A DNA stretch of 64,000 bases, from IMG/VR virus record IMGVR_UViG_3300032665_001598; one strand, given 5' to 3'. Of the stretch, positions 1-52,513 are shown piece after piece. Source of the stretch: an uncultured virus (IMG/VR IMGVR_UViG_3300032665_001598) (lineage: Duplodnaviria > Heunggongvirae > Uroviricota > Caudoviricetes). Every line of letters begins with the position of its first letter. Position 1 is the stretch's first letter. Under the pieces are notes generated by a model, which made no database searches, was not told where the DNA came from, and saw nothing but the letters and a program-made list of their open reading frames with translations. Position numbers and translations under genes: made by a program.

Positions 1-284
1 TTTCGTTTGAAGCAGAAGCAGGTACTCCTTTGTATATCCTTTGGATGACTTACGGATCCGGGGATAGCTTTGGGCACGGCGATGGATATGGCGAGATCTT
101 GTGGGTATTTAAAAACGCAGATGTTGCCGAACGAGCATTGGCGGCTTTCCAGGCAGACACCGAGCAGTATTCAATCCCAGTTAAAGACGATGAAGGTAAC
201 ACAGTTACGCTACATAACCCGGGTTCGGGATACTTCGAATCGGTCAACTCTTTACAAGTTGATACATTTTTATTAAGCATATAA
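1..284 (+). CDS. hypothetical protein, 5'-truncated by window edge
   Basis: Frame is open from position 3 to TAA at 282-284; followed by an RBS for the next gene. Confidence 0.7.
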   Translation, partial: SFEAEAGTPLYILWMTYGSGDSFGHGDGYGEILWVFKNADVAERALAAFQADTEQYSIPVKDDEGNTVTLHNPGSGYFESVNSLQVDTFLLSI

Positions 285-2286: not shown

Positions 2287-2315
2287 TTGACACAAATACA
2301 AAATTGTATTATACT
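2287..2315 (+). promoter_or_regulatory. sigma70-like promoter
   Basis: TTGACA-N17-TATACT upstream of the rpoZ-like gene and tRNAs. Confidence 0.75.
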
Positions 2316-2342: not shown

Positions 2343-2570
2343 ATGTCAAAATATCACAGTCGTCATGAACACCTAGACGTGGAGAAATGCGTTAAAGAGT
2401 CCGGCGGTAATAAGTTTGAGTTGATTATTATGGCTGCTCAACGTGCCCGTGAAATTAAAGCAGGCAATTCACGTAGTATTCATATGGAACACCATCACGG
2501 TGTTATGACAGCATTGTTAGAAATTCAACACGGAAAAGTAGATCAAGAGTACTACAAAAAGATTAAATAA
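2343..2570 (+). CDS. rpoZ: RNA polymerase omega subunit-like protein
   Basis: VEKCV...GNKFELIIMAAQRAREI...ALLEIQHGKV matches the RpoZ pattern NRFeLv.vAa.RArql...AL.EI..Gk. Confidence 0.75.
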   Translation: MSKYHSRHEHLDVEKCVKESGGNKFELIIMAAQRAREIKAGNSRSIHMEHHHGVMTALLEIQHGKVDQEYYKKIK

Positions 2571-2577
2571 GTTTAAT

Positions 2578-2662
2578 GCGACTGTGGAGAAATTGGTATA
2601 CTCATCAGACTTAAAATCTGACGCTTCACGGCATGGCGGTTCAAGTCCGCCCAGTCGCACCA
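2578..2662 (+). tRNA. tRNA-Leu(TAA)
   Basis: Acceptor GCGACTG/CAGTCGC, anticodon arm TCAGA-CTTAAAA-TCTGA, long variable arm, GGTTCAAGTCC T arm, encoded CCA. Confidence 0.95.
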
Positions 2663-2678
2663 ATAATAAAGGGAAAGT

Positions 2679-2822
2679 ATGTCAAAGCAAAAAAATACAA
2701 TTGATCGAGCATACGGTAACATTCCTAAAGAAGTTGGTCCTGGCGATATATTCGACTGGTTCCCTACATACCGTGGTTTACGGTATTATTGGTATAAGTT
2801 AGTAAGACAAGTAACAAGATAA
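2679..2822 (+). CDS. small hypothetical protein (47 aa, MSKQKNTIDRAYG...)
   Basis: Translated by hand; purine-rich RBS AAAGGGAAAG; fills the gap between two tRNAs. Confidence 0.55.
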   Translation: MSKQKNTIDRAYGNIPKEVGPGDIFDWFPTYRGLRYYWYKLVRQVTR

Positions 2823-2829
2823 AAGTAAC

Positions 2830-2919
2830 GGAAGCGTGGCCGAGTGGCCGATGGCACCTGCCTACTAAGCAGGCATACGGGCAACTGTATCGTGAGTTCG
2901 AATCTCACCGCTTCCGCCA
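2830..2919 (+). tRNA. tRNA-Ser with anticodon ACT
   Basis: Acceptor GGAAGCG/CGCTTCC, G73 discriminator, long variable arm, anticodon arm CCTGC-CTACTAA-GCAGG, GTTCGAATC T loop, CCA. Confidence 0.9.
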
Positions 2920-2924
2920 AGTAG

Positions 2925-3178
2925 CAATAAGTTTGGGCATATGGTGTGGCGACCATCTGATACATGTGGGAGTATGAGTAACAGTCGTAGGACCGGCCCC
3001 GTGGCACTGATACTGCAATTTCGGATACTTCCGAGGGTACAAGTTATTTTAAAACTGTGAAAGTGTTGCTAGATCCCGTGAAAGAGCCTGCGAAGGCGAG
3101 CCTTATTGGTTGGGTAGCTCCCGACTGGCATTGCGGTCCACTGTCGAAAAGCAGATTTTAGTATGCCCAAATTTATTG
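2925..3178 (+). ncRNA. candidate structured non-coding RNA of unknown family (~254 nt)
   Basis: 17-bp terminal stem (2925-2941 with 3162-3178, one G-U), GGACCG/CGGTCC long-range helix, several internal hairpins, raised GC, no credible ORF. Confidence 0.7.
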
Positions 3179-3252
3179 ATATTTTGGTTATTTTATTCAG
3201 ATTCATAAATAATACTATACAATCGTATCACACGAAACTGGAGAATCCCCAA

Positions 3253-4236
3253 ATGAGTCAAACAACAAAAATCCGCTGGCTAATTGCACATGAACCTGTA
3301 AAGCTATTTTTACGTACAGCTGAAGCGTTTAGTGCTAAAATTGCTGAATTAACCGATGGCAAATTTGAAATAGAAATTTTCACACCATCCCATTATTTTG
3401 AGCAAGCTAAACTTACTGGCTACGAAAACAACCTAGGTAACTTTTACCGTGATAACGGTCCTATCATCGAAATGGAACAAGGCAACATTGAAATTAGCCA
3501 AGTTCATATTAATGAATTGGCCATGTGGTGTAATACAGATTTTTGGGCACTTGAAATGCCATTCTTATTTCGTGATCATGAACATGCAAGTCGCGTATTT
3601 GAAGGACCAATTGGTAAAGGCCTATTGGGTACTATTGAAGAAACAAGCCCGGCTAAAGGAATGGCATTTACTTACAGTGGCGGATTCCGTTGTGTAGTAT
3701 CAGAAACTCCGATCAACGACATTAGTGATATGAAGGGGTTAAGCTATGCAATTAATACAAATCCTGTAGCAGTTGATACTGTACTTGCACTTGGCGGTGT
3801 TCCTGAATCTTTCTCTATTAGAGATTATGTAAAGAAAGTTACAGAAGAAGGTTTTAATTCTACTCTTTTAGAAACAACTATTCCACGTTACCTAGCACAA
3901 TTCCAAGGTACAAATAAGAAGCATCTTATCAACACAAAACACAGTTTGTTCCTGACTAGTATTATTATCAGTAAAGCATTCTGGGAATCATTGGACGCAG
4001 TTGATCAAGCAGCGTTTGAAGAAGCAAGTATGTACGCAAGTCAATTAGAACGTCAATGGTCAGTTGACGACTCAGTTGAATTTGCTGCTAAAGATAATCA
4101 TGACGATATCGGTGTTACTTATCAAGAACTAAGTGATGTTGATACAGCTAAGTTCAAAGAACTAACTGCTCCCTTGTATGACAAATATCAACATTTCTTC
4201 CAACCTGGATTACTGGACGGTATTATCAAATCGTAA
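3253..4236 (+). CDS. TRAP transporter DctP-like solute-binding-fold protein
   Basis: ELTDGKFEIEIF, LEMPFLFRD.EH, GGFR, DMKGL, FWESL motifs typical of DctP; ATG 3253 follows GGAG. Confidence 0.8.
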   Translation: MSQTTKIRWLIAHEPVKLFLRTAEAFSAKIAELTDGKFEIEIFTPSHYFEQAKLTGYENNLGNFYRDNGPIIEMEQGNIEISQVHINELAMWCNTDFWALEMPFLFRDHEHASRVFEGPIGKGLLGTIEETSPAKGMAFTYSGGFRCVVSETPINDISDMKGLSYAINTNPVAVDTVLALGGVPESFSIRDYVKKVTEEGFNSTLLETTIPRYLAQFQGTNKKHLINTKHSLFLTSIIISKAFWESLDAVDQAAFEEASMYASQLERQWSVDDSVEFAAKDNHDDIGVTYQELSDVDTAKFKELTAPLYDKYQHFFQPGLLDGIIKS

Positions 4237-4240
4237 TTAA

Positions 4241-4753
4241 ATGGTAATTGATTTTCAACAACAACTAAAAACTGTAAAATTTAAAGGACTGCACAATTGT
4301 AATGATTATGCAGATCTTTTTGCTGGCCGCAGAACAGTAGTCTTTTCTTTACCCTTGCCGGCAAATGTAAATTCGTGGGACCAGATAAAGAGATACGAAA
4401 CAGCTTACAAAGAATTAAGTAATGCCGGTGTAGACCAAATCTGTGTAGTAAGTGATACTTCATTTTTAATTCCCTATGTTGAATATCACGGCCCGCATAT
4501 TATGCCGTTGGTAGATACAACAATGCAATTCACTGCACTAGTTAAAGACTATGCAGAATCATCAAAAGATCTCAATGAGTTATCGCATTTATGGCAATAC
4601 GTTATTGTTTTAAACGATGGTGTTCCGGAAAAATTATTTAATAATCCGTTAATACCCAACATGCCATTTAAACTTTATTGTAAACCTGTATATCAATATT
4701 TTAGATTAGGTCCAGATAGAGTAGCAAAATATTTACTTGACAATGCCAAGTGA
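4241..4753 (+). CDS. peroxiredoxin (Prx5/redoxin)-like protein, degenerate
   Basis: DLFAGRRTVVFSLP...YKEL..AGVDQICVVS resembles Prx5, but the peroxidatic PxxxTxxC motif is missing. Confidence 0.6.
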   Translation: MVIDFQQQLKTVKFKGLHNCNDYADLFAGRRTVVFSLPLPANVNSWDQIKRYETAYKELSNAGVDQICVVSDTSFLIPYVEYHGPHIMPLVDTTMQFTALVKDYAESSKDLNELSHLWQYVIVLNDGVPEKLFNNPLIPNMPFKLYCKPVYQYFRLGPDRVAKYLLDNAK

Positions 4754-4776: not shown

Positions 4777-4852
4777 GCCCTTATAGCTCAGCTGGTAGAG
4801 CGCAACATTTGTAATGCTGATGTCCCGTGTTCGAATCATGGTGGGGGCACCA
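4777..4852 (+). tRNA. tRNA-Thr(TGT)
   Basis: 76-nt cloverleaf, TAGCTCAGCTGGTAGAGC D arm, anticodon loop TTTGTAA, GTTCGAATC, CCA; TTGACA-N17-TACAAT promoter at 4737-4765. Confidence 0.92.
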
Positions 4853-5795: not shown

Positions 5796-6974
5796 ATGAA
5801 AAAGCTATTAATAGCTCTATTAGCAGTAACTGGGTTTAGCCTCGCGCAAGCCCAATCAAACGTAACCGTGTACGGTTTGTTAGACGTAGGTTATATTGGT
5901 ACTAACTATAAGGGCGTTGGTACTTCGGCTACATCAAGTCAAAATACAAATGCCTTTGGGAATAGTGCCGAACAATCGAGTCGATTAGGCTTTAAAGGCA
6001 GTGAAGATTTAGGCGGCGGATTAAGTGCAATCTTTACTGTTGAGACAGGATTAAATCCGTCTGACTCAACCGCAAGTACATTTAACAATCGTCAATCATT
6101 TGTTGGCTTCCGTCAAAACGGTATTGGTCAAGTTGCAGTGGGTACTCAGTACACCCCGATCTTTAATGCAGTAGCATTAACAGATGCAGGTCAAATGAAC
6201 AACTTAGTCGGCGATGCGATCTATGCATCGAATCCACAAAGTAACGGCAATAGTGGATCTGGCCCATATGCTAACAGCACTTCTAGCTCTAGTTCAAGCG
6301 ATGCATTTACAGTTCGTGTTTCAAATTCGTTAACAGCAACAACTAGTAACTTTGAAGGGTTTACTGGTACTGCGTTGCTGGTTGTAAACAATCAAAATGC
6401 AACACAAACTAGTTCTACTTCTGGTGGTACTAACAATGCAAGTGGTTGGGGCTTAGGTGCTAACTACGAATGGGAAAAGTTATTAGTAACAGCTAACTAC
6501 CAAGCTCTTAAGAGTTTCCAGTCAGCAGCTACGTTAACAACACCTGCTCCTGCATTGTGGACTGGTGCCGCAGGCGGAACAAATACACAAGACAATCAAA
6601 CATACGTTGCTGCAACATATGACTTTGGTATCTTGAAGGCCTACGCTCAATACATCAACCGTAAAGCTACTGATACTTTGAACACAGGTTACTATGCTCA
6701 ACGTAAAGCTGAACAAATTGGTATCCGTGGTAACATTACACCAAATATTGATGCATGGTTATCAGGCGGCTTAGGTAAAGTAACAGCGTTTGGCGTAGGC
6801 CAACCAGTTGCTAATTTTACAGCATTTCAACTTGGTTCTAACTACTGGCTAAGCAAGCGTACAAACTTGTATGCTATCTATGGTCAGACACAAACATCAA
6901 GCGTGGCATCAGCAGGTAGCAATCCAGCACTTGCAGGTAGCAACTATGCGTTAGGTGTACGTCATACATTCTAA
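5796..6974 (+). CDS. Gram-negative (Burkholderiales/Neisseria-type) outer-membrane porin
   Basis: Signal peptide ending AQA; SNVTVYGLLD, SRLGFKGSEDLGGGL, LSKRTNLY, C-terminal GVRHTF. Confidence 0.92.
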   Translation: MKKLLIALLAVTGFSLAQAQSNVTVYGLLDVGYIGTNYKGVGTSATSSQNTNAFGNSAEQSSRLGFKGSEDLGGGLSAIFTVETGLNPSDSTASTFNNRQSFVGFRQNGIGQVAVGTQYTPIFNAVALTDAGQMNNLVGDAIYASNPQSNGNSGSGPYANSTSSSSSSDAFTVRVSNSLTATTSNFEGFTGTALLVVNNQNATQTSSTSGGTNNASGWGLGANYEWEKLLVTANYQALKSFQSAATLTTPAPALWTGAAGGTNTQDNQTYVAATYDFGILKAYAQYINRKATDTLNTGYYAQRKAEQIGIRGNITPNIDAWLSGGLGKVTAFGVGQPVANFTAFQLGSNYWLSKRTNLYAIYGQTQTSSVASAGSNPALAGSNYALGVRHTF

Positions 6975-14910: not shown

Positions 14911-15210
14911 ATGAATCTTAAACCTCTATCCGACAGAGTTGTAGTTCGCAGAGTCGACAGCGAAACAGTAACTAAAGGTGGTATCTTTATTCCTGACGCC
15001 GCCGCAGAAAAAGCAGATCAAGGTACAGTACTAGCAGTAGGTCCGGGCAAACGTAACAAAGAAACAAGTGAATTAATTGCACTTGATGTTGCTGTTAACG
15101 ATCGTGTATTGTTTGGCAAGTTTTCTGGTCAGACTGTCAAGATTGACGGAGAAGAATTATTGATTTTAAAAGAGGAAGACATCCTCGGCGTTATCACACT
15201 AGGAGAATAA
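14911..15210 (+). CDS. groES: co-chaperonin GroES
   Basis: [33 protein letters not shown]. Confidence 0.95.
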
Positions 15211-16833
<1,623 letters not shown>

Positions 16834-48296: not shown

Positions 48297-50618
48297 ATGA
48301 CGACAATTCAAGTCACAAAAAGAAGTGGACAAAAAGAACCGCTCGCAGTAGAGAAGTGGCAAGCCCAGATTACTAAGGTTTGTGCAGGCATAGCGGACGT
48401 AAGTCAAAGTATGATTGAAATCAAAAGTCAACCACACTTTTATGATGGCATTACAACAAAAGAAATAGATGAAATTACATTACGAGCGATTGTAGACTTA
48501 ATCGACGTAGAAGCAAATCCCGATGTTGGGCACGTTAACTATCAATACGTAGCAGGCAAACAGCGTTTGTCGATGTTACGCAAGGATGTTTATGGCGACT
48601 ACGAGCCTCCTCGCCTGTATGACATTGTAAAGACAAATGTAGCAACAGGTCTTTACACAGATGAATTATTATCTTGGTACACCGAAGAAGAGTGGGACAA
48701 GATGGATGCTATGTTAGATCACAGCAAAGATGAACTATACAGTTATGCCGCTATTGAACAGCTAATTGAAAAATATCTAGTACGTAATCGCGCTACAAAG
48801 GAAACATATGAAACTCCACAAATTCGTTACATGGTTGCAGCCGCTACTGTCTTCCACAAAGAAGAACCTAGTAGTGCCCGTTTGCGCTACATCAAAGAAT
48901 ACTACAATGCGGCGAGTGACGGCCTTTTTACTCTTGCTACTCCTGTACTCGCTGGTCTGGGTACTCCTACAAAACAATTTTCGTCCTGTGTACTTATCCG
49001 CTCTGATGACGATCTTGATTCTATCTTTGCTTCTGGAGAGATGATGGCCAAGTATGCCAGCAAACGTGCAGGCATTGGTTTAGAAATTGGTCGCTTACGT
49101 CCATTAGGATCGCCTATACGTGGCGGCGAAATTATGCATACTGGAATGATTCCATTCTTAAAGAAGTGGTTTGGGGACTTACGTTCATGTTCACAAGGTG
49201 GCATTCGTAACGCAAGTGCAACAGTATTTTATCCTATTTGGCATCATCAATTTGATGACCTAATTGTATTAAAGAACAATCAAGGCACAGACGAAACACG
49301 TGTACGTTTTATGGACTATGGTGTTGTACTAAGTGCCCTGTTCTGGCGTCGTTTCAAGAACAAAGAAAACATTACCTTCTTTGATCCAAATGAAGTTCCT
49401 GATTTATATCAAGCATTCTATAGCAATATTGAACTATTTGAAGACTTATATGTCAAGTACGAAAAGCGTACCGACCTACGTAAGAAAACAATGTCAGCTG
49501 AAGAAGTATTCAAAGGCGGCATCTTAAAAGAACGTACAGACACAGGGCGTATCTATCTTGTGTTTATTGATAACGTACAAAAGCAAGGACCGTTTGATCC
49601 AGAGTATCATACTATCTATCAATCGAACTTGTGCTGTGAAATTCTATTACCAACTAAATCCTTTAAACGCTTAGATGACGAAGAAGGCCGTATTGCATTA
49701 TGTACACTAGGTAGTATTAACTGGGGTGCTTTCCGTAATCCAGAAGATATGCGCCGTGCGTGTCGCATCTTACATCGCAGTCTTAACAATATTTTGGACT
49801 ATCAAGATTTCTTGAGTATTCAAAGTAAACTAAGCAACGATGAAATTCGTCCGTTAGGCATTGGTATTACTAACTTGGCTTATTGGCATGCTAAACGCAG
49901 TTATAAGTATGGCGAGAAAGATGCCCTACATGATGTTAAGTCGTGGATGGAACATCAAGCCTACTACTTAACTGAAGCAAGTGTTGAGTTAGCCAAGGAA
50001 CGTGGCGCTTGTGTAGATTCTGCTCGAACACGTTATGGCCAAGGCGTCTTCCCGTGGGAGTTACGTGCCGAGGGTGTAAATCAATTAACAGACTTTACTC
50101 CTGAGCTAGATTGGGAAACACTAAGAACCAACATGAAACAATATGGTGTGCGTAATGCCACCCAGATGGCAGTTGCCCCAGTTGAGTCCAGTAGTGTTGT
50201 TATTAATTCTACCAACGGTATTGAAATGCCAATGAGTTTAATTAGTACCAAAGAATCAAAAGCAGGTTCACTTACACAGGTTGTTCCTGAATATGCTAAG
50301 TTGAAAAACAAATATCAATTGATGTGGGAACAGAAAGACTGTGACGCATACTTAAAGACAGCGGCAGTTATTGCGGCCTATGTTGATCAAAGTATTAGTA
50401 CAAATACTTTCTACAATCCAGCACACTGGGCAGATCGTAAAGTACCAACTACATTAATTGCAAAGAATTTAATGCAAGCGCACGTTTGGGGTCTGAAAAC
50501 CTTCTATTATAGCCTCGTGAATAAACAGGGTGCTAAAGCGGATGCCGAAGAGGCACCCGCTATGTTAGAAGCTGTTGATTTTGATGATGAAGCCGATTGC
50601 GAATCTTGTAAACTTTAG
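48297..50618 (+). CDS. nrdA: ribonucleotide reductase class Ia alpha subunit
   Basis: N-terminal ATP cone (VTKRSG), QFSSCV, SNLCCEI, GLKTFYY, C-terminal CESCKL. Confidence 0.96.
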   Translation: MTTIQVTKRSGQKEPLAVEKWQAQITKVCAGIADVSQSMIEIKSQPHFYDGITTKEIDEITLRAIVDLIDVEANPDVGHVNYQYVAGKQRLSMLRKDVYGDYEPPRLYDIVKTNVATGLYTDELLSWYTEEEWDKMDAMLDHSKDELYSYAAIEQLIEKYLVRNRATKETYETPQIRYMVAAATVFHKEEPSSARLRYIKEYYNAASDGLFTLATPVLAGLGTPTKQFSSCVLIRSDDDLDSIFASGEMMAKYASKRAGIGLEIGRLRPLGSPIRGGEIMHTGMIPFLKKWFGDLRSCSQGGIRNASATVFYPIWHHQFDDLIVLKNNQGTDETRVRFMDYGVVLSALFWRRFKNKENITFFDPNEVPDLYQAFYSNIELFEDLYVKYEKRTDLRKKTMSAEEVFKGGILKERTDTGRIYLVFIDNVQKQGPFDPEYHTIYQSNLCCEILLPTKSFKRLDDEEGRIALCTLGSINWGAFRNPEDMRRACRILHRSLNNILDYQDFLSIQSKLSNDEIRPLGIGITNLAYWHAKRSYKYGEKDALHDVKSWMEHQAYYLTEASVELAKERGACVDSARTRYGQGVFPWELRAEGVNQLTDFTPELDWETLRTNMKQYGVRNATQMAVAPVESSSVVINSTNGIEMPMSLISTKESKAGSLTQVVPEYAKLKNKYQLMWEQKDCDAYLKTAAVIAAYVDQSISTNTFYNPAHWADRKVPTTLIAKNLMQAHVWGLKTFYYSLVNKQGAKADAEEAPAMLEAVDFDDEADCESCKL

Positions 50619-50661
50619 AGTAAACAATAGTATTATTATTGTCTATTAGATAAATAATACT

Positions 50662-51429
50662 ATGGATTATAAAAAACATTACAATTTATTAATTGAGCGT
50701 AGCCGTGATAGAATATTAGATGGGTATGTTGAAAAACACCATATTACTCCAAGATGTTTAGGCGGAACAGACGATAGAAATAATATTGCTATCCTAACCC
50801 CGGAAGAACACTTTTTAGCACACCAACTGTTAATTAAGATACATCCGGGGAACAGAGATTTAGTTTATGCAACTCAATTGATGACAACACATCATACAGA
50901 AGCAAGAATAAACAATAAACTATTTGGATGGTTAAGAAAACAATGTGCATTAGCAATGTCTACACAAACAAAGAATTGGCAAGCAATAAACGGACACCCT
51001 AAGGGGTTTCTTGGTAAAAAGCATAATATAGAAGATCTTGATCGAATTACGTCGGGACTAAAGAAAACGGCTGTTGAAAAAAGAGTAGAAGTATATTCGT
51101 ATAATCTTGATGGATCATTCCATAAAAAATACGAGTCGCTAATAGAGTGTGCAAAAGATTTACAAACTAATGCATCTAATGTAAAATATACAGCAGAAGG
51201 CAAATTTGGTCATTGCAAACAAAAACAACTCAGATACGAGTTCACTGATAGTATTAGTCCGTACGTTAAACTATCGCCGTTAAAGGGTAAGAAGAAAACA
51301 GAAGAACATAAGCAAAATCAGAGTAAAGCAATGAAGGGCAGAAAAAGAACAGTAGAACAAAATGCCAACCATAGTTTGAAAATGAAAGCATATCACAGAG
51401 AAAAAAATAATGTCAAAACAACAATATGA
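50662..51429 (+). mobile_element. free-standing HNH homing endonuclease between nrdA and nrdB
   Basis: EKHHITPRCLGG.DD..N...LTPEEHFLAH; NUMOD-like C-terminal repeats; overlaps the nrdB start. Confidence 0.88.
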
Positions 51430-52513
51430 TTTAAGCAAACCAACCAACTATTTAAAACGAACAATGTTTTTAGATCCAGCCGGGCCAGTAACTATTCAAC
51501 GTTTTGAAGAAGTACGTTATCCTAAAATTGCAGACTTTGAAGCTACAGCACGTGGCTTCTTTTGGCAACCAGAAGAGATTAGTCTAACTAAAGACAGCAA
51601 CGACTTTAAAGATGCGTCTGATGCAGTTAAGCATATCTTCACAAGTAACTTGCTACGCCAAACAGCCTTAGACAGTTTACAAGGACGTGGACCTACACAA
51701 GTGTTTACACCTGTGTGTTCATTGCCGGAAGTTGAAGCCTTAATGTATAACTGGGGATTCTTCGAAACAAACATTCATAGTAAATCATACAGTCATATTA
51801 TTCGTAATATCTACAACGTGCCAAAGGATGTGTTTAACACTATCCACGATACTAAAGAAATTGTAGACATGGCGAGTAGTGTAGGCAACTACTATGATCA
51901 ACTACATAAAATTAACTGTGCTAAAGAACTAGGGGATACCAATGTCTCAGAAACACATCACATCAAAGCAATTTGGATGGCCTTACATGCCAGTTACGCA
52001 TTAGAAGCATTCCGCTTTATGGTATCGTTTGCTACAAGTTTGGCCATGGTTGAGAATCGTATCTTTATGGGCAATGGTAATATTATTAGCCTAATCCTAC
52101 AAGACGAGTTGTTGCACAAAGGTTGGACAGCTTACTTGATCAATCAGGTAATCAAAGATGACGCACGTTTTGCCGCTATCAAAGGCGAATGTGAAGCAGA
52201 AGTTTATCAGTTATACATGGATGTTATCCGTGAGGAGAAAGAATGGGCTACCTACTTGTTCAAGATGGGTCCTGTGATTGGTTTAAATGCCAATATCCTT
52301 AAGGATTTCGTTGATTATACCGCAGTTGGTGCACTAAAAGACATCGGTATCAAGTATCAGGCATCAGCACCTAAGACCACGCCTATTCCATGGTTCAACA
52401 AGCATACAGATACAAGTAAAAAGCAAACAGCTCTACAAGAATCAGAGAGTACGTCCTACGTCATTGGTGTTATGAGTGACGCAATTGACTACAACGAGTT
52501 ACCGAGTTTATAA
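51410..52513 (+). CDS. nrdB: ribonucleotide reductase class Ia beta subunit
   Basis: FFWQPEEI, QTALDS.QGR, ETNIHSKSY, LEAFRF, DELLH. Confidence 0.95.
   Translation: MSKQQYDLSKPTNYLKRTMFLDPAGPVTIQRFEEVRYPKIADFEATARGFFWQPEEISLTKDSNDFKDASDAVKHIFTSNLLRQTALDSLQGRGPTQVFTPVCSLPEVEALMYNWGFFETNIHSKSYSHIIRNIYNVPKDVFNTIHDTKEIVDMASSVGNYYDQLHKINCAKELGDTNVSETHHIKAIWMALHASYALEAFRFMVSFATSLAMVENRIFMGNGNIISLILQDELLHKGWTAYLINQVIKDDARFAAIKGECEAEVYQLYMDVIREEKEWATYLFKMGPVIGLNANILKDFVDYTAVGALKDIGIKYQASAPKTTPIPWFNKHTDTSKKQTALQESESTSYVIGVMSDAIDYNELPSL

Follow-up and report, generated by a model that had tools for sequence, protein, structure and literature searches.

Extra stable RNAs have been known from the transfer RNA (tRNA) clusters of phages since the 1970s, as species 1 and 2 of T4. 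In the T4 annotation these appear as rnaC (139 nucleotides, nt) and rnaD (119 nt), set inside the tRNA cluster, on the tRNA strand and a few nt from a tRNA gene. Two other RNAs belong in the same discussion, GOLLD and ROOL, the latter about 580 nt long. According to PMC3014915, the biological roles of T4 RNAC and RNAD are unknown; ROOL and GOLLD are described, in bioRxiv 10.1101/2024.12.08.627333, as elaborately folded phage and prophage RNAs that often lie near tRNA islands and have neither a known function nor a known protein partner, many members of GOLLD being longer than 800 nt. Here, we describe a third, unrelated RNA family at the same genomic address: a structured RNA encoded directly behind a tRNA-Ser gene in DNA of an uncultured virus (Caudoviricetes; IMG/VR record IMGVR_UViG_3300032665_001598), of which the whole 64,000-nt stretch analysed is called ‘the window’ below.

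Taken together, the evidence leads us to propose, with moderate confidence, that positions 2923-3180 (+) of the window are the single-copy gene of a stable, trans-acting, compactly folded and shape-dependent non-coding RNA, carried by a clade of uncultured giant freshwater phages. The family is unusually well-defined (258 nt, 13 helices, covariation at 40 pairs, a core that is sharply conserved, and a promoter or a tRNA immediately upstream) and the RNA is of a size that suits chemical probing, crystallography, cryo-electron microscopy and simple tests of activity.

A covarying fold shared by 27 homologues

The first-pass annotation, made from the letters of the window, had proposed a structured phage non-coding RNA, possibly of a new class, and had suggested both a search of Rfam and a collection of homologues in which covariation could be assessed. 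The proposal stands on each count: no Rfam 15 family matches the element, no description of it was found in the literature, and its fold covaries across 27 homologues, with compensating changes at 40 of 71 pairs.

These 27 distinct, full-length homologues remained after the removal of duplicates and false matches, and come from uncultured phages and lake-metagenome contigs. They were reached by five routes: through the DctP-like and the rpoZ-like neighbour proteins, with a 19-mer from the 3′ part searched in metagenomes, and with degenerate 5′ and central patterns searched in viral contigs. Counts of loci, promoters and loops given below as a share of 23 cover the first 23 homologues, the four later ones lying outside the promoter scan; pairwise identity among these 23 ranges from 65% to 99%, with a median of 78%. 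One viral record is 100% identical to the window over 701 nt. As to the 48 metagenome loci matching the 3′ 19-mer, 26 were set aside as unrelated protein-coding sequence carrying a putative ClpA/B-type ATPase motif.

RNAalifold, run on a plain MAFFT alignment of 19 homologues, returned 71 pairs, of which 31 show compensating changes; the covariance model R1 was built from this result and all homologues were re-aligned to it. Because a MAFFT alignment of 23 sequences (A6) misaligned three of them and lost helix P5 under RNAalifold, the model-based alignments were used for the counts. Across the 27 homologues, 97.9% of pair cells are standard; sliding the 3′ partners by 1-3 columns lowers this to 34-40%. 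Both sides have changed at 40 pairs, and none of 500 shuffles attains the observed values. The outcome is a set of 13 nested helices common to all 27. G-U cells outnumber A-C cells by 112 to 3, which assigns the RNA to the + strand, where the tRNAs and promoters lie as well.

Folded as a single sequence, the element is only moderately unusual: the + strand reaches -86.7 kcal/mol (z -2.63, equalled by 0 of 200 shuffles) and the - strand z -2.26 (1 of 200). The closing helix, taken as a bare inverted repeat, is the third longest of 20 in the window (at least 15 nt, within 400 nt); it is conservation with compensating changes, not the folding of a single sequence, that lifts the element above chance. 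The elements of the fold, all on the + strand, are as follows.

2923..3180 (+): structured RNA gene, whole; 258 nt from the first to the last paired base of P1; model R1 280 bits, expectation value (E) 1.4e-80
2923-2942 / 3161-3180 (+): P1, closing helix; compensating changes at 13 of 20 pairs, 95.4% of cells paired
2943-2954 (2943-2945 / 2952-2954) (+): P2, hairpin GGU/ACC with hexaloop GUGGCG; 3 of 3 pairs covary
2955-2959 / 3152-3156 (+): P3, AUCUG/CAGAU; 100% paired, with one compensating G-C to A-U change (in homologue L124) and two U-G cells
2962-2969 / 3138-3144 (+): P4, ACA-U-GUGG/CCACUGU, with one bulged base
2981-2985 / 3054-3058 (+): P5, ACAGU/ACUGU, enclosing the P6 domain; 5 of 5 pairs covary
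2996-2999 / 3035-3038 (+): P6, GCCC/GGGU, in a three-way junction with P6a and P6b; the most conserved block of the RNA (2996..3038)
3004-3016 (+): P6a, hairpin; GNRA loop in 16 of 23 homologues, not in the window
3021-3034 (+): P6b, hairpin UCGGA-UACU-UCCGA; loop UACU in 23 of 23, inner pair AU in 15 and GC in 12 of 27
3076-3079 / 3133-3136 (+): P7, CCGU/GCGG, enclosing P8 and P9; 2 of 4 pairs covary, 100% paired
3086-3097 (+): P8, hairpin GCCU-GCGA-AGGC; 4 of 4 pairs covary, GNRA tetraloop in 22 of 23
3100-3102 / 3127-3129 (+): P9, GCC/GGC, containing P9a; 2 of 3 pairs covary
3109-3125 (+): P9a, hairpin GUUGG/CCGAC, inside P9; 5 of 5 pairs covary

Six helices had been put forward by the first-pass annotation, and five of them hold. 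The 17-base-pair closing helix (2925-2941 with 3162-3178, including one G-U) forms the core of P1, which extends beyond it by U2942-G3161 and, past one mismatch, by A2923-U3180. The hairpins TCGGA-TACT-TCCGA and GCCT-GCGA-AGGC are P6b and P8, unchanged, whilst GGTTGGG/CCCGACT and ATGGT/ACCAT survive in their cores, as P9a and P2 respectively, the outer A-U and U-A pairs of the latter belonging to P1 and P3. The one proposal that fails is a second long-range helix, GGACCG (2990-2995) with CGGTCC (3134-3139), in which 76% of cells pair, no pair is compensated and which 416 of 500 shuffles equal; its 3′ strand is taken up by the covarying helices P7 and P4.

P1 encloses the small hairpin P2, the stacked helices P3 and P4, interrupted by a single bulged base and an A-rich internal loop, and two branched domains that carry GNRA tetraloops, one made up of P5, P6, P6a and P6b and the other of P7, P8, P9 and P9a. 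P3, P4, P6 and P6b are nearly invariant and P1, P2, P5, P8 and P9a covary freely. Even so, the core is compensated in the more divergent homologues: the third pair of P4 takes all four Watson-Crick forms (UA 14, AU 11, CG 1 and GC 1 of 27) and its bulged base, U in most homologues, is A in L124. The P2 loop GUGGCG is unchanged in 23 of 23 homologues and in the four later ones, and the unpaired junction strands are conserved as much as the helices. In three homologues, an additional hairpin with a GNRA loop is inserted between P5 and P6. When every pair of columns was scanned, pseudoknots included, no further robust covarying helix emerged; a GUA/UAU pairing that appeared there is supported by a single lineage of four sequences, and was set aside as not robust. 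By eye, we also note a putative AAAA/UUUU pairing and a putative AGUA/GAA S-turn beside P5. GNRA loops, fixed P2 and P6b loops and conserved junctions together make up the feature set of RNAs with a compact three-dimensional body.

A gene of its own

A sigma-70-type promoter (TTGnnn-16..18-TATAAT/TATACT) ends 2-10 nt before P1 in 15 of the 23 loci, whereas by the same scoring only 0.67% of random positions in these loci qualify. In four of the 15 it matches the consensus perfectly (12/12); no extended -10 (TGn) accompanies the promoter candidates examined. All 15 loci lack a tRNA upstream, and 10 of them have no adjacent tRNA on either side. In the other eight, the window included, a tRNA ends 1-18 nt upstream (tRNA-Ser in seven, tRNA-Val in one); three of the four later homologues follow tRNA-Ser and the fourth has no tRNA nearby. 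Because flanks and promoters vary while the RNA stays constant, and because each of the 23 loci offers either a promoter before P1 or a tRNA closely upstream, the RNA is a gene of its own and not the leader of a neighbour. Processing from a tRNA transcript, as the first-pass annotation had it, thus fits the window, where only 3 nt separate the RNA from tRNA-Ser and the nearest good promoter stands ahead of the rpoZ-like gene, but it does not apply generally, given the 15 loci with a promoter of their own.

In four lake-water metatranscriptome runs there are contigs identical to 2946-3167, together with short contigs on the 3′ part of tRNA-Ser; the runs belong to four studies of 2017-2018, possibly one campaign. 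Contigs of two of the runs both start at 2946, just inside P1, which is at most a weak hint of the mature 5′ end, and the contigs leave the flanking protein genes and most of P1 uncovered, gaps of a kind that are not usable as evidence. Nine further RNA-library runs hold small shares only.

The neighbourhood of the RNA in the window is listed here.

2287..2315 (+): sigma-70-type promoter candidate TTGACA-17-TATACT; 11/12 match; heads the block of rpoZ-like gene, tRNA-Leu, tRNA-Ser and RNA
2343..2570 (+): rpoZ-like gene; RNA polymerase omega/Rpb6 domain, Pfam PF01192 (RNA_pol_Rpb6), E 3.5e-9
2578..2662 (+): tRNA-Leu (UAA); ARAGORN and Rfam
2830..2919 (+): tRNA-Ser (anticodon ACU); ends in CCA, 3 nt ahead of the closing helix of the RNA
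3204..3211 (+): late-promoter-like CATAAATA; one mismatch against the T4-type TATAAATA; +23 after P1, preceding the DctP-like gene
3253..4236 (+): leaderless DctP-like gene; Pfam PF03480, E 1.1e-32; 73 nt past the RNA and not part of it
4241..4753 (+): peroxiredoxin-fold gene; PHROG 2281, E 2.4e-8; second gene of an inserted two-gene module
4777..4852 (+): tRNA-Thr (UGU); ARAGORN

The candidate at 2287-2315 is the nearest good promoter to the RNA in the window; it is a consensus match only, and shuffles predict 3.4 such sites for a region where 3 occur. The RNA of the window has no terminator-like site behind it. The label given to CATAAATA at 3204-3211 depends on the T4-type late promoter consensus, which we take to be TATAAATA. 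GC content, for which the first-pass annotation had singled the segment out, is 0.49-0.52 over 2801-3100 as against 0.285-0.305 in the other intergenic stretches of the window.

Downstream of the RNA, tRNA-Thr follows 14-21 nt after P1 in 9 of the 23 loci. In 12, the window included, a NATAAATA motif resembling a late promoter comes next, together with a DctP-like gene, and the arrangement is a different one in two. In a 357-kilobase (kb) record rated 100% complete, the RNA is single-copy and sits between tRNA-Ser(ACU) and tRNA-Thr, separated from each of them by two protein genes; it is single-copy in four other phage records as well. The ancestral slot is thus tRNA-Ser / RNA / tRNA-Thr, and, given the position between these two tRNAs in relatives, the DctP-like/peroxiredoxin-like pair of the window is an insertion.

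Some features of these loci deserve mention in their own right. The anticodon ACU of the tRNA-Ser has A at the wobble position, likewise in seven relatives of the scanned set (L007, L080, L059, L042, L123, L133 and the complete record), whilst tRNA-Ser with the usual GCU occupies the same slot in L005, L018 and L125. ARAGORN reports in the complete 357-kb relative (record G002) a permuted, two-piece transfer-messenger RNA (tmRNA) gene with the tag ANDEQFALAA (L106 11983-12379, minus strand) and, in its tRNA cluster, a tRNA-like gene with a two-base anticodon, ‘tRNA-??? (ac)’ (L112 15463-15538). Elsewhere in the window there are a Gram-negative porin gene at 5796-6974 (Porin_4, E 3.5e-37), whose product has an N-terminus resembling a signal peptide and which has a relative at the same place in L007; GroES and GroEL genes at 14911-16830 (PHROG 3188, E 1.5e-26; PHROG 5725, E 6.9e-179); and a homing-endonuclease-like gene at 50662-51426 (PHROG 655, E 2.1e-50) that lies between the genes for the large and small ribonucleotide reductase subunits (48297-52510).

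Distribution

The RNA belongs to a group of uncultured giant freshwater (lake) phages. When 2560-3260 was compared by blastn with 50,697 phage records, 54 matched, on the two tRNAs only, and none covers the RNA. Model R1 found no match in T4 or in Atu_ph07, PA5oct, Phosso and Vibrio phage 2.275.O, the nearest cultured giant phages by helicase similarity, where it returned two scraps of 12.7 and 10.3 bits. Across about 185,000 prokaryote species genomes (one genome per species), the 5′ pattern has 0 matches and the central pattern 23, none of them homologous, R1 matching the pattern alone; the best of these, L138, was rejected as an unrelated hairpin.

Eighteen viral loci have a relative of the rpoZ-like gene beside tRNA genes, with identities as low as about 40%; the proteins of two relatives are 84% and 46% identical to that of the window, values that can be set beside the 78% median of the RNA. 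Where the rpoZ-like protein is 40-48% identical (11 loci, L020-L030), R1 finds nothing, nor does it anywhere in four contigs of this set, which are fragments (12-33% complete) and so no proof of absence. Behind tRNA-Ser, four of the six distant relatives read there have a small open reading frame (ORF). This ORF is conserved, starting MKPGKTFNLSKQTKRF... or MKPTSTFKLSKQTKRF..., and replaces the RNA at L020 3328-3527, L024 2971-3168, L027 3178-3429 and L029 1730-1970.

A relative of about 206 nt was found at L121 595-800 (minus strand; 24.5 bits), between tRNA-Tyr and tRNA-Ala. It shares the P6/P6b block, its P3 and P4 look fully compensated by eye, and its P2 loop is apparently missing; it is possibly a distant, shorter variant of the family. 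Because the last viral scan returned L121 alone, this singleton was left out of the homologue count.

Proposed role and alternative explanations

We set out here how such an RNA would most likely be made and what it would do. Synthesis would be early and by the host sigma-70 RNA polymerase, either from the promoter 2-10 nt before P1 or, as in the window, as the tail of a tRNA transcript. The ends of the RNA would then be set by the nucleases that mature the flanking tRNAs: ribonuclease P (RNase P) at the 5′ end of tRNA-Thr, where that follows, and an endonuclease cutting behind the CCA of tRNA-Ser, with 3′ trimming back to P1. RNase III may cut the long P1, which would itself shield the RNA ends. 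The near-invariant core (the P2 loop, P3, P4, P6/P6b and the strands of the junctions) would offer a specific surface for binding or catalysis, whose partner may be a protein or RNA of the tRNA/translation sphere. Its mode of action would be neither cis control of a neighbour gene nor base-pairing in the manner of a small regulatory RNA; GNRA loops, fixed loops, near-invariant helices and junctions indicate a compact body and thus make it unlike a base-pairing regulator. The RNA is probably aimed at tRNA or translation, going by its tRNA neighbours and the tmRNA gene of the complete relative; should tRNA or the translation apparatus prove to be what it binds or acts on, the purpose of such phage RNAs would become clear.

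One feature in particular invites a mechanistic suggestion. T-box RNAs, through their UGGN, and RNase P RNA, through its GGU loop, pair with the 3′ end of tRNA; UGGC in the P2 loop could do likewise with a 3′ GCCA, the sequence in which the adjacent tRNA-Ser ends. Covariation has no bearing on this pairing, the P2 loop being invariant. At its boldest, the suggestion becomes a new tRNA-directed RNA machine, in which the P2 loop would dock the 3′ GCCA of a tRNA and the P3-P4-P6b core would process it, shield it against host nucleases that attack the anticodon or the acceptor end, or alter its charging; we regard this as a long shot, though, if true, it would amount to a phage-encoded ribozyme or RNA chaperone for tRNA with no known relative.

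Closely allied to this is the idea that the invariant core is catalytic, bringing about either its own cleavage or a reaction with tRNA as substrate, such as end processing or a step at the 3′ CCA, which would make it a new ribozyme class. We think this unlikely. Several GNRA tetraloops, invariant long-range helices, the bulge in P4 and the A-rich internal loop are traits of large ribozymes, and the position among tRNA genes and the fixed UGGC of the P2 loop, next to a tRNA-Ser ending in GCCA, would suit a tRNA substrate. Set against these, at E up to 10, Rfam gives no match to a ribozyme family, be it hammerhead, twister, pistol, hatchet, HDV-like or another; the supported helices are all nested, with no robust pseudoknot in the column-pair scan; the bulged base of P4 is not invariant, as L124 shows; and the loop that would hold the CCA end, itself beyond the reach of covariation, is apparently absent from L121.

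A cis-acting role is rather unlikely in our judgement, whether as the leader of the DctP-like module or as a structured spacer that does no more than direct maturation of the flanking tRNAs. A DctP-like gene lies directly downstream in 12 of the 23 loci, many loci have tRNAs on one or both sides, and the RNA of the window is followed by no terminator-like site, all of which such a role would accommodate. It is tRNA-Thr, not DctP, that comes next in 9 of 23 loci, however, and where a DctP-like gene does follow, a late-promoter-like motif separates it from the RNA; 10 of the 15 loci with a promoter of their own have no tRNA next to them on either side, and a mere spacer would not need unpaired junction bases as conserved as its helices.

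Distinctly unlikely, too, is an assembly made of RNA only, in which the RNA, like ROOL or GOLLD, would form a multimer and function in the assembled particle. The size of the RNA speaks against it (258 nt, far below either of those RNAs at the lengths given at the outset), as do the lack of a match to the Rfam models of ROOL and GOLLD and the absence of any conserved self-complementary loop that we could see, the UUUUAAAA stretch being broken at its centre in some homologues. In its favour, no partner protein of the five families searched turned up in five phage records, and the genomic habit near tRNA islands is shared, going by bioRxiv 10.1101/2024.12.08.627333. The terminal inverted repeats of 17-23 nt and an internal 39-codon frame (2941-3060) might point instead to an element that works as DNA, be it a miniature inverted-repeat transposon, an attachment site or an origin, or to a gene for a small protein; this is highly improbable and already conflicts with the data: the excess of G-U over A-C cells means selection on one RNA strand, compensating changes run throughout the internal helices, the element is single-copy in the complete 357-kb genome and the four other records, no reverse transcriptase was found in five phage records, and the frame, the only one inside the element, lacks an AUG in 9 of 23 homologues, in keeping with the first-pass view that there is no credible ORF.

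Several points weigh against a compact, trans-acting RNA with a place in tRNA biology, the explanation that we favour. Gene position is the whole basis of the link with tRNA and translation, and none of the five families searched for (TROVE, Ribonuclease III, RNase P protein, PolyA_pol/CCA-adding and RVT_1) turned up in five phage records, which include the complete relative, annotation covering part of its 403 ORFs. The promoters are consensus matches, and a stricter rule, with at least 4/6 in the -35 hexamer, passes only 4 of 23. Assembled contigs cannot show strand, ends or level, and RNA libraries can carry DNA. Because homologues were retrieved with exact patterns from conserved parts (three patterns, beside two protein-synteny searches), the invariance of those stretches is partly built in. 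Finally, pair counts come from alignments fitted to the model structure and are biased towards it, though the unfitted 19-sequence result agrees.

Comparison with known RNAs

Rfam 15 was searched four times, with the whole window at the gathering thresholds and, at E up to 10, with 901 nt, with 267 nt and with 12 homologue loci, and no search gave a match on the element. The first-pass annotation had seen in it no signature of tmRNA, RNase P RNA, signal recognition particle (SRP) RNA or hammerhead, and nor do we. For tmRNA, ARAGORN finds three tRNAs and no tmRNA in the window, making no call on the element, and the only Rfam hint, to mt-tmRNA, reaches 15-17 bits where the threshold is 65 (E 7). 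No RNase P RNA family matches the window or the 12 homologue loci at E up to 10, and the same loci and the window give no Rfam match on the element to SRP RNA, 6S RNA or Y RNA (YrlA); a hint of YrlA at L018 lies on tRNAs (21 bits against a threshold of 69) and was discarded. A T-box is likewise not indicated: UGGC is present in the P2 loop, yet there is no Rfam match and no terminator-like site after the RNA, and the downstream genes vary. Nor is a retron msr/msd, RVT_1 being found in 0 of 5 phage records (one complete) and the neighbours being tRNAs and DctP-like genes.

Full-text searches of the literature found no description of this RNA. Closest in source material is the covariation-based catalogue of Fremin et al. 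2023 (PMC10690425), which presents candidate structured RNAs of 29-151 nt from IMG/VR, that is, from the same kind of uncultured viral contigs as used here; at 258 nt, the RNA is not among these candidates as a unit. Four short words of it were not found in six supplementary files of PMC10690425, the supplement having been searched in part, and partial overlap is possible.

We turn lastly to likeness of structure and of habit. In bacterial RNase P RNA, the two ends form a closing helix, one base bulges out of a long-range core helix, GNRA loops occur and a G-rich loop pairs with the 3′ CCA of tRNA; its core helices are pseudoknotted. The RNA described here resembles it in the closing helix, the bulged long-range helix, the GNRA loops, the G-rich loop and the connection with tRNA; it differs in that all 13 of its supported helices are nested, with no extra covarying long-range helix that could complete a pseudoknotted core of the RNase P kind, and in that the RNase P models do not match.

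T4 RNAC and RNAD are, like this RNA, non-coding and encoded on the tRNA strand within a phage tRNA cluster. The two of them, each shorter than this RNA, lie behind tRNA-Arg, whilst tRNA-Ser is followed directly by tRNA-Thr in T4, which is the very slot that this RNA occupies; rnaC has a tRNA-like T-arm sequence and this RNA has none, and R1 matches neither the T4 tRNA region nor the whole T4 genome, so that the two systems are unrelated. ROOL and GOLLD, by the description cited at the outset, are phage-borne and lie near tRNA genes, as this RNA does, and are two to three times larger. By habit, then, the closest analogues are T4 RNAC/RNAD and ROOL/GOLLD, to none of which it is related in sequence or fold, and the RNA takes its place as a new family among the RNAs of phage tRNA islands.

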